A stretch of DNA of 64,000 nt from a virus, in UHGV virus genome UHGV-1376965; one strand, given 5' to 3'. A program made the position numbers and the translations under genes. The notes under the pieces were generated by a model. The model was given only the letters and a program-made list of their open reading frames with translations, did not search any database and was not told the origin of the DNA. The stretch's first letter is position 1, and each line of letters begins with the position of its first letter. Positions 57,572 through 58,915 of the stretch are shown here, in pieces.

Positions 57572-58915
57572 GCCTTATCCAATGTGCCGCCCCCTACGCT
57601 CCTCATAGTGGGGATATAAGGCACAGTTTTCCTCCCGGCTATTTTTGCTTAAAATAGTGACATGAAACAACAGGTGTCATTCAAATTCCGGTTAAAACCA
57701 GATGGTCAACAGGAGCGTCAAATGAGGCGCTTTGCCGGAGCTTGTCGTTTCGTTTTCAACCGTGCTCTGGCGCTTCAGAATGAGAATCATGAGGCCGGTA
57801 AAAAATACATCCCTTACACGAAAATGGCTTCCTGGTTGGTTGAGTGGAAAAAAGACACTGAAACCGAATGGCTTAAAGATTCTCCCTCACAGCCATTGCA
57901 ACAGTCACTGAAAGACCTTGAGCGGGCTTACAAAAACTTCTTCCAGAATCGGGCAGCTTTTCCCCGATTCAAAAAGCGGGGACAGAATGATGCATTCCGC
58001 TACCCGCAGGGTGTTAAGCTCGATCAGGAAAACAGCCGTATTTTTCTGCCGAAACTTGGCTGGATGCGCTACCGGAATAGCCGTCAGGTCACGGGTATTG
58101 TGAAAAATGTTACTGTCAGCCAGTCCTGCGGTAAGTGGTACATCAGTATTCAGACAGAAAGAGAGGTATCCACTCCTGTTCACCCTTCAGCATCAATGGT
58201 CGGACTGGATGCTGGCGTGGCTAAACTCGCCACGCTGTCAGATGGCACAGTCTTTGAACCTGTAAATAGTTTTCAGAAAAACCAGAAGAAGCTGGCGAGA
58301 CTTCAGCGACAGTTAAGCCGCAAGGTCAAATTCAGCAACAACTGGCAGAAGCAGAAACGCAAAATACAGCGACTGCATTCCCGTATCGCAAATATCCGCA
58401 GGGACTACCTTCACAAAGTCACAACGACCGTCAGCAAAAACCACGCAATGATTGTCATTGAGGATTTGAAGGTTAAATACATGTCAAAGTCAGCGGCGGG
58501 AACGATAAGTCATCCGGGTCGCAATGTCCGGGCAAAATCAGGTTTAAACCGTTCGATACTGGATCAGGGCTGGTATGAAATGCGCCGCCAGCTTGAGTAC
58601 AAGCAGCTCTGGCGTGGCGGTCAGGTGCTTGCTGTTCCGCCAGCGTACACAAGCCAGCGTTGCGCGTGCTGTGGTCATACAGCGAAAGAAAATCGCCTGT
58701 CACAAAGTAAATTCAGATGCCAGGTATGTGGATATACAGCGAACGCCGATGTAAACGGCGCTCGTAACATTTTAGCGGCGGGGCACGCCGTACTTGCCTG
58801 TGGAGGGATGGTGCAGTCAGGCCGCCCGTTGAATCAGGAACCCACCGAAATGATTCAGGCGACAGCCTGAACGTAGCAGGAATCCACGCCCTTCGGGGCG
58901 TGGAGGATGTCACGC
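57572..58915 (+). mobile_element. IS200/IS605-family element carrying tnpB only (approximate ends)
   Basis: tnpB ORF plus left-end imperfect hairpin (gtgcc ... ggcac, 57583-57621) just 3' of a TTAC tetranucleotide, and right-end perfect hairpin ccacgccc-ttcg-gggcgtgg (58884-58903); no tnpA. Confidence 0.6.
57662..58870 (+). CDS. tnpB: TnpB (OrfB) RNA-guided nuclease / transposase accessory protein
   Basis: 402 aa; RuvC-like motifs (GLDAGV, IVIEDL) and C-terminal zinc finger CACCGH ... CQVCG. Confidence 0.85.

Follow-up and report, generated by a model that had tools for sequence, protein, structure and literature searches.

A tnpA-less IS609 derivative with an intact-looking TnpB nuclease and omega RNA between ddrA and ddrB of a P1-like phage-plasmid

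The ddrA/ddrB junction of the phage-plasmid analysed here (the window, the whole 64,000-nt stretch of UHGV virus genome UHGV-1376965) is occupied by a derivative of IS609. With a probability of roughly 85%, this derivative entered the P1-like lineage once and now appears immobile, with an intact TnpB and an omega RNA that would target the empty junction. As a genome feature it is ordinary: IS609 is catalogued, and the annotations of phages RCS47 and SJ46 already include this insertion. Its modest value is that of a natural test case, in which nuclease and guide RNA look intact, no transposase is present, the ends are damaged and some 85% of P1-like relatives carry a perfect target. This immobilised-but-armed state looks like a small, experimentally testable point beyond ordinary annotation.

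Identity, boundaries and ends of the element

The window is a P1-like phage-plasmid, and its positions 57000-59500 are 99.4% identical to phage RCS47. Alignment with the empty site of reference P1, in which ddrA and ddrB are separated by a gap of 12 nt, delimited an insert of 1335 bp at 57579-58913, with nothing duplicated or lost (Table 1). The P1 sequence ...GCCTTAT^GCTGCCTC... (a caret marks the point of insertion, exactly between TTAT and GCTG; over a longer stretch, ...CATCCGTGTTACGCCTTAT^GCTGCCTCTTTAATG...) corresponds in the window to ...GCCTTAT^CCAATG...GATGTCAC^GCTGCCTC..., with a left junction of ...GCCTTAT^CCAATGTGCC... and a right junction of ...GGAGGATGTCAC^GCTGCCTC... This comparison supplied the exact ends of the IS and upheld the description, in an earlier note on this DNA, of a TnpB element lying antisense between ddrA and ddrB: the segment is missing from P1, and the tnpB reading frame occupies the plus strand between minus-strand genes. 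The bounds given in that note (57572-58915) were off by 7 and 2 bp. The target it had proposed, TTAC (57568-57571), was ruled out by the P1 empty-site alignment together with the flanks of relatives; it sits seven bases upstream of the true target, TTAT, whose complement, A+TAA, closed ddrA before the insertion. TTAT or TTAC adjoins the left end at every relative site examined. The cleavage sites of IS609 have been given as "left, TTAT; right, TCAA" in a P1-like plasmid (Venturini et al. 2019, PMC6906374).

Table 1. Features of the insertion and its surroundings, in window coordinates
Feature	Position	Strand	Basis
ddrB, 995 aa, ddrB-ParB domain (Pfam)	54575-57562	-	ORF list, P1 comparison
TTAT, target and left cleavage motif of IS609, expected TAM for TnpB	57575-57578	+	P1 empty-site alignment
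Left end (LE)	57579-57661	+	comparison with full-length and tnpA-less IS609 copies
tnpB (insQ), 402 aa, RNA-guided endonuclease family	57662-58870	+	Pfam, alignment to ISDra2 TnpB structures
Omega RNA scaffold, from within the tnpB 3' end to the IS right boundary	58767-58913	+	covariation, 24 relatives
Right-end (RE) subterminal hairpin CCACGCCC-TTCG-GGGCGTGG	58884-58903	+	DNA fold; compensatory changes in the stem among relatives
Right-end terminal motif TCAC	58910-58913	+	right-end alignment, regex scan of 48 distinct sites
ddrA, 121 aa, ends ...IKEAA as in P1	58910-59275	-	ORF list, P1 comparison
Predicted 16-nt guide GCTGCCTCTTTAATGT, antisense to the last ddrA codons	58914-58929	+	directly 3' of the RE boundary
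Neighbours lydA, lydB, hdf, darA, ddrA, ddrB	darA, 59272-61191	-	ORF list

By alignment, the segment is a tnpA-less, non-autonomous derivative of IS609 (IS200/IS605 family). Its tnpB and right end (57678-58912) are about 95% identical in nucleotides to the insQ loci (insQ/ydcM in K-12) carried by 5015 of 5426 complete E. coli genomes. Like IS609, the window copy encodes a 402-aa TnpB, was inserted 3' of TTAT without duplication, lacks terminal inverted repeats, has the same RE hairpin with GAAT 5' of it, and retains the conserved LE box ATATAAGGC...GTTTTCC. Unlike IS609, it lacks tnpA, which in full-length chromosomal copies is a divergent gene of 143 codons 7 bp upstream of insQ, its LE guide box and hairpin have been replaced, and it ends in TCAC rather than TCAA. 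The first 16 or so nucleotides of its tnpB and the sequence upstream of them follow instead a tnpA-less sublineage. Members of that sublineage are LE-tnpB-RE derivatives of about 1.34 kb that share the window's junction and lie at unrelated sites, including a phage-like plasmid (beside a terminase gene), the IncI2 plasmid TP114 and Salmonella plasmids. One GenBank record (phage 813R1) gives the gene product name "IS609".

Homologous IS ends were found at dozens of unrelated loci. The right ends are conserved across genera (...GGAGGATGTCAA): the sequence ...GGAGGATGTCA occurs at 48 distinct sites in many genera, followed by an A everywhere except in the window and then by total divergence. The left ends are likewise conserved across genera, and directly after TTAT or TTAC read CC(G/A)GTGCGCCGTAAA(A/G) followed by a hairpin; the canonical form in relatives is CC(G/A)GTGCGCCGTAAA(A/G)-CCCCGTCC-TTCA-GGGCGGGG-ATATAAGGC. 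Like the IS609 family, IS608 of Helicobacter pylori has a right end with a GAAT guide box and a TCAA cleavage motif. Unlike it, IS608 targets TTAC, a rule that fails here, and carries tnpA and tnpB in the same orientation.

As the earlier note had stated, tnpA is missing: a tblastn search with intact IS609 TnpA detected no TnpA-like sequence in the element or the whole window (best E = 0.026). Within the LE, positions 57579-57632 are homologous to the IS609 LE and 57633-57661 are the tnpA-deletion junction directly upstream of tnpB. The TAAAA guide box and the CCCCGTCC-TTCA-GGGCGGGG hairpin have been replaced by CCCCCTACGCTCCTCATAGTGGGG, such that the TAAAACCCCGTCCTTCAGGGC of relatives reads CCCCCTACGCTCCTCATAGT in the window. 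The left-end hairpin reported earlier was recovered as a weak stem (z = -1.3) that is atypical of the family and is flanked by TTAT, not TTAC. This LE is identical or nearly so among the ten P1-like copies compared. Its hairpin is different rather than absent and may permit some recognition by TnpA. Since the left guide box has been lost, TnpA should nevertheless fail to recognise the left cleavage site.

At the right end, the hairpin folded well on both strands (z = -2.9 on the plus strand and -3.5 on the minus strand) and is preceded by GAAT (58880-58883) at the position of an IS608-type right-end guide box. The hairpin thus stands as first described; it does not abut the ddrA stop, and ten more IS bases follow it. 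The terminal TCAC is found in the window and in all ten P1-borne copies, as against TCAA at all 47 other distinct sites.

The left 112 bp of this variant were compared with complete E. coli genomes at a cut-off of 98% identity, and the only matches were about 64 plasmids, 90-134 kb in size; five were opened and all five proved to be P1-like with the same insertion. The variant was found only in a P1-like context, and there is therefore no evidence of its having moved. Collectively, and by analogy with the rules of IS608, the missing TnpA, the replaced LE box and hairpin, the TCAC end and this restricted context make the element appear immobile.

In other copies (loci L003-L073), the LE box was seen to covary with the flank: GTAAAA accompanies TTAT at about 22 sites with one exception (L016), and GTAAAG accompanies TTAC at seven of seven. 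Such covariation is expected of an IS608-type DNA guide.

The TnpB nuclease, its omega RNA and the predicted guide

The TnpB carries the Pfam domains HTH_OrfB_IS605, OrfB_IS605 and Cas12f1-like TNB, with matches at 1.5e-34 and 2.4e-24, and its residues 5-377 align with the ISDra2 TnpB structures 8bf8, 8exa and 8h1j (E = 9e-52). RuvC residues D183, E267 and D363 fall on the ISDra2 catalytic positions, and all four zinc-finger cysteines (C334, C337, C353 and C356) are present. Of ten P1-borne copies, nine retain the complete reading frame; the tenth, in phage 813R1, is frameshifted. Pairwise dN/dS against relatives was 0.12-0.24, a comparison with other IS609 copies that is partly shaped by gene conversion and does not reflect selection in the P1 lineage alone. 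A nuclease-dead TnpB regulator of the TldR type was ruled out by the full length of the protein and the presence of every catalytic residue. The nuclease therefore looks intact, and it may be expressed and able to cleave. A promoter scan of the plus strand upstream of 57662 yielded nothing convincing for tnpB, with no site above shuffled expectation.

The system resembles the TnpB-omega RNA systems of ISDra2 and ISGst in its domain order and catalytic triad, in an omega RNA that overlaps the tnpB 3' end and stops at the RE boundary, in a guide made of flanking DNA, and in a TAM that is the transposon target motif; ISGst2 TnpB2 uses TTTAT as its TAM (10.1101/2023.03.14.532601). It differs in that protein identity to ISDra2 TnpB is low, and in that those systems are experimentally characterised, whereas the P1 copy is known from its sequence and lacks both a transposase and a functional-looking LE. 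Not every natural TnpB proves active when assayed, HpyTnpB being one that does not (10.1101/2023.03.14.532601). IS609 TnpB was one of the purified candidates in another TnpB study, the accessible part of which gives neither a TAM nor an activity for it.

The earlier note had placed an omega RNA at the right end, with its guide in ddrA 3' sequence, and covariation among 24 relatives bore this out. RNAalifold analysis of the last 194 nt of 24 elements gave a consensus with 49 base pairs; compensatory changes occur in 16 of these, and 97.2% of cells in the alignment were paired. None of 500 column shuffles reached the observed values, and slid-partner controls gave 0-5 compensatory pairs, compared with the 16 observed. 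A long-range helix pairs 58767-58772 with 58905-58910, a further conserved helix lies at 58744-58760, and the RE hairpin is helix 11 of the consensus, with compensatory changes among relatives. The window copy preserves the helices of the omega RNA. An Rfam identity was rejected as sub-threshold: the matches to HgcC (22.6 bits; gathering threshold 50) and sot0042 (17.8; threshold 88), which we take to be TnpB-associated RNA families, fall on the omega RNA stretch and served as a lead only, replaced by the covariation test.

The 16 nt that follow the scaffold are antisense to ddrA. Preceded by TTAT, they rebuild the uninterrupted P1 junction, and the guide sequence is unique in the window. TTAT followed by GCTGCCTCTTTAATGTTGGC is exact in seven of eight IS-free P1-like loci, namely P1, P7 and five of six plasmids. 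The TCAC change falls on the last base of the scaffold, adjoining the guide, and may bear on the function of the RNA. The sixth plasmid, pEC15-3 (L091, 4648-4660), reads TTAC-TCTGCC instead of TTAT-GCTGCC. These changes affect the last TAM base, guide position 1 and DdrA residue 121 (Ala to Glu), and the junction is possibly a target-site variant.

These features would fit the following history. On a single occasion, a tnpA-deleted IS609 copy would have inserted into an ancestral P1-like genome through single-strand "peel and paste", at a position 3' of the TTAT that overlaps the ddrA stop, with no duplication and with DdrA kept through an IS-supplied TGA. The 16 nt of ddrA that adjoin the IS would be transcribed as the guide of the omega RNA, and the TnpB-RNA complex would cut DNA in which GCTGCCTCTTTAATGT comes directly after TTAT; IS-free P1-like genomes have exactly this arrangement at their uninterrupted ddrA/ddrB junction. 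RNA-bearing TnpB is known to cut a guide match next to a TAM, and cleavage of donor joints, or empty sites, is established (10.1101/2023.03.14.532601). The IS-bearing genome should itself be immune, since GTCAC, not TTAT, stands before the guide match there. Because there is neither a transposase nor a usable left end, a role in restoring the element after excision cannot apply. The options that would remain are no function, or cleavage of IS-free relatives leading to exclusion or homing.

We considered whether the element is a decaying relic without present activity, its TnpB intact only because the insertion is recent. The transposition functions are already damaged, the tnpB of phage 813R1 is frameshifted, and the IS interior is near-identical in most copies, as would be consistent with a young age. 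However, the full reading frame persists in nine of ten copies, including those that differ by 1.3-4% in the IS; these differences are mostly synonymous (dN/dS 0.17-0.23), and the omega RNA is preserved in the window copy. On balance, a relic seems unlikely, though it deserves serious consideration.

Neighbouring genes and expression of ddrB

On the ddrA strand, the gene ends ...GAG GCA GCA TAA in P1 and ...GAG GCA GCG TGA in the window. The insertion split the P1 sequence as GC^A TAA and the IS right end contributed G TGA, such that IS sequence provides both the stop codon (58910-58912, TCA on the plus strand) and the third base of the final alanine codon. The earlier note had suspected a change in the last codons of ddrA; the codons did change (GCA TAA to GCG TGA), but the 121-aa DdrA protein is unaltered, because the right end of the IS supplies a replacement TGA. 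Since DdrA is kept exactly, any Dar phenotype would come from the expression of ddrB alone.

Such a phenotype would be expected if the insertion were strongly polar, knocking down ddrB and the downstream hxr-like gene and thereby altering Dar antirestriction. The 1335 bp of untranslated antisense RNA that now part ddrA from ddrB end their close coupling and could permit Rho-dependent termination, and convergent transcription of tnpB could interfere as well. However, no convincing intrinsic terminator was found on the minus strand, where one weak 5-bp stem was detected and site counts equalled those of shuffles, and the RE hairpin has no T run after it on that strand. In addition, ddrB keeps its native 16 nt upstream (57563-57578) and is intact, with 995 codons, in the window, RCS47, SJ46 and six plasmids, phage 813R1 being the exception among the IS-bearing copies examined. 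A ddrB-facing promoter-like site also exists, although it is not significant. Strong polarity is thus a doubtful proposition; some effect of the insertion on ddrB is conceivable, and the sequence cannot decide polarity.

The promoter-like site runs from 57680 to 57651 on the minus strand (ATGACA, an 18-nt spacer and TATTTT) and does not exceed shuffled expectation; its position is the one expected for the promoter of the lost tnpA. Elsewhere in the window, two ORFs (265 and 262 aa) follow ssb at 52655-54247, the site at which P1 carries IS1 and isaB. In the invertase region (63325-63906), a 193-aa invertase beside the lyd genes lies on the minus strand, in the opposite orientation to cin in P1.

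Distribution, single origin and possible homing

The ddrB/ddrA junction was found in 464 records of complete E. coli genomes. It is uninterrupted in 390 of these P1-like elements, the site being likewise empty in P1 and P7, and the left end of the insertion is present in about 64 (roughly 14%). The element is annotated as insQ at the exact same position in RCS47 (FO818745) and SJ46 (KU760857), and an "IS609-like sequence" has been reported between ssb and the C segment of the P1-like plasmid pSvP1 (PMC6906374). The feature was thus already known.

RCS47, SJ46, vB_EcoM-813R1 and the approximately 64 E. coli P1-like plasmids share the site, the orientation, the aberrant LE and the TCAC end. The RCS47 copy differs at one base in 1335, and plasmid AP024695.1 is 100% identical over 2335 bp (57079-59413). 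Because all ten IS-bearing P1-like loci compared share the aberrant LE and the TCAC end, the insertion happened once, and recurrent independent insertion at a hot spot was ruled out on the same grounds. SJ46-type copies are about 4% different, in patches, with the loop of the RE hairpin flipped. At the level of single loci, SJ46 (L012), L084 and L085 differ by 2-4% in patches corresponding to window positions 58329-58726 and 58888-58895, where the loop TTCG has become CGAA. This pattern suggests gene conversion from other IS609 copies together with inversion of the hairpin tip.

An immobile TnpB and omega RNA might be retained for homing or gene drive among P1-like phage-plasmids, or as a weapon of exclusion. 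Under such a scheme, IS-free co-resident relatives would be cut; they would then be lost, or else mended with the IS-bearing copy as template, thereby gaining the IS. The TnpB gene-drive principle has been demonstrated experimentally on plasmids (PMC11870625). Guide and TAM find an exact match in seven of the eight IS-free loci sampled, and about 390 of the 464 E. coli elements offer an empty site. Three transposition functions have been lost with tnpB left intact and dN/dS near 0.2, a pairwise value against other IS609 copies that gene conversion has partly shaped. Across six genomes, divergence within the IS is 0-0.15%, compared with 1-2% for the 3-kb flanks, and IS-bearing genomes are not grouped by flank. 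For example, the left flank of one of them (L014) is 0.6% from those of IS-free P7 and L086 and 1.4-2.1% from those of other IS-bearing genomes. Flank haplotypes common to IS-free genomes come within 40-90 bp of the IS ends.

However, short mosaic blocks run all along the flanks, and ordinary recombination can spread a young insertion over many backgrounds. The IS interior receives no patches from IS-free genomes and hence looks younger than its flanks. Given finely mosaic flanks and an IS interior without an IS-free partner, ordinary recombination therefore explains the same divergence pattern, which, over the 18 loci compared (10 with and 8 without the IS), fits homing and background mosaic recombination equally. 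Moreover, P1-like plasmids are low-copy and mutually incompatible, such that co-residence is brief, and the insertion has reached a frequency of only about 14%. We thus consider retention for homing or exclusion quite unlikely. If it were true, about one in seven P1-like phage-plasmids would carry a transposase-independent, RNA-guided homing element or superinfection weapon. An active element would represent natural RNA-guided homing or exclusion between phages, extending the laboratory TnpB gene drive on plasmids.

The reading of the segment as a native P1-family gene deleted from reference P1, favoured only by its presence in several P1-like genomes, is virtually untenable, since its ends match, base for base, those of IS609 copies from the chromosomes and plasmids of many genera, the junction is uninterrupted in 390 of the 464 E. 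coli P1-like records, and the TTAT^G junction is clean with the ddrA stop kept.

Replacement of a stop codon, as seen in ddrA, is a recurrent outcome of insertion in the IS609 family. The family right end, ...GTCAA, reads TGA on the other strand, and at 14 of 48 sites a convergent ORF of at least 60 codons runs in frame into it, compared with 5 and 4 of 48 for the other two frames. The genes ddrA, ydcO, yfeD, yedK and a terminase gene all end at this TGA (window 58910-58912; loci L004, L005, L006, L008, L018, L019, L024, L048 and L060). Their reconstructed native ends are xx^A TAA, and the TTAT target therefore corresponds, on the opposite strand, to an A followed by a TAA stop. Thus, an IS609-family element often inserts at a stop codon and supplies a substitute for it.
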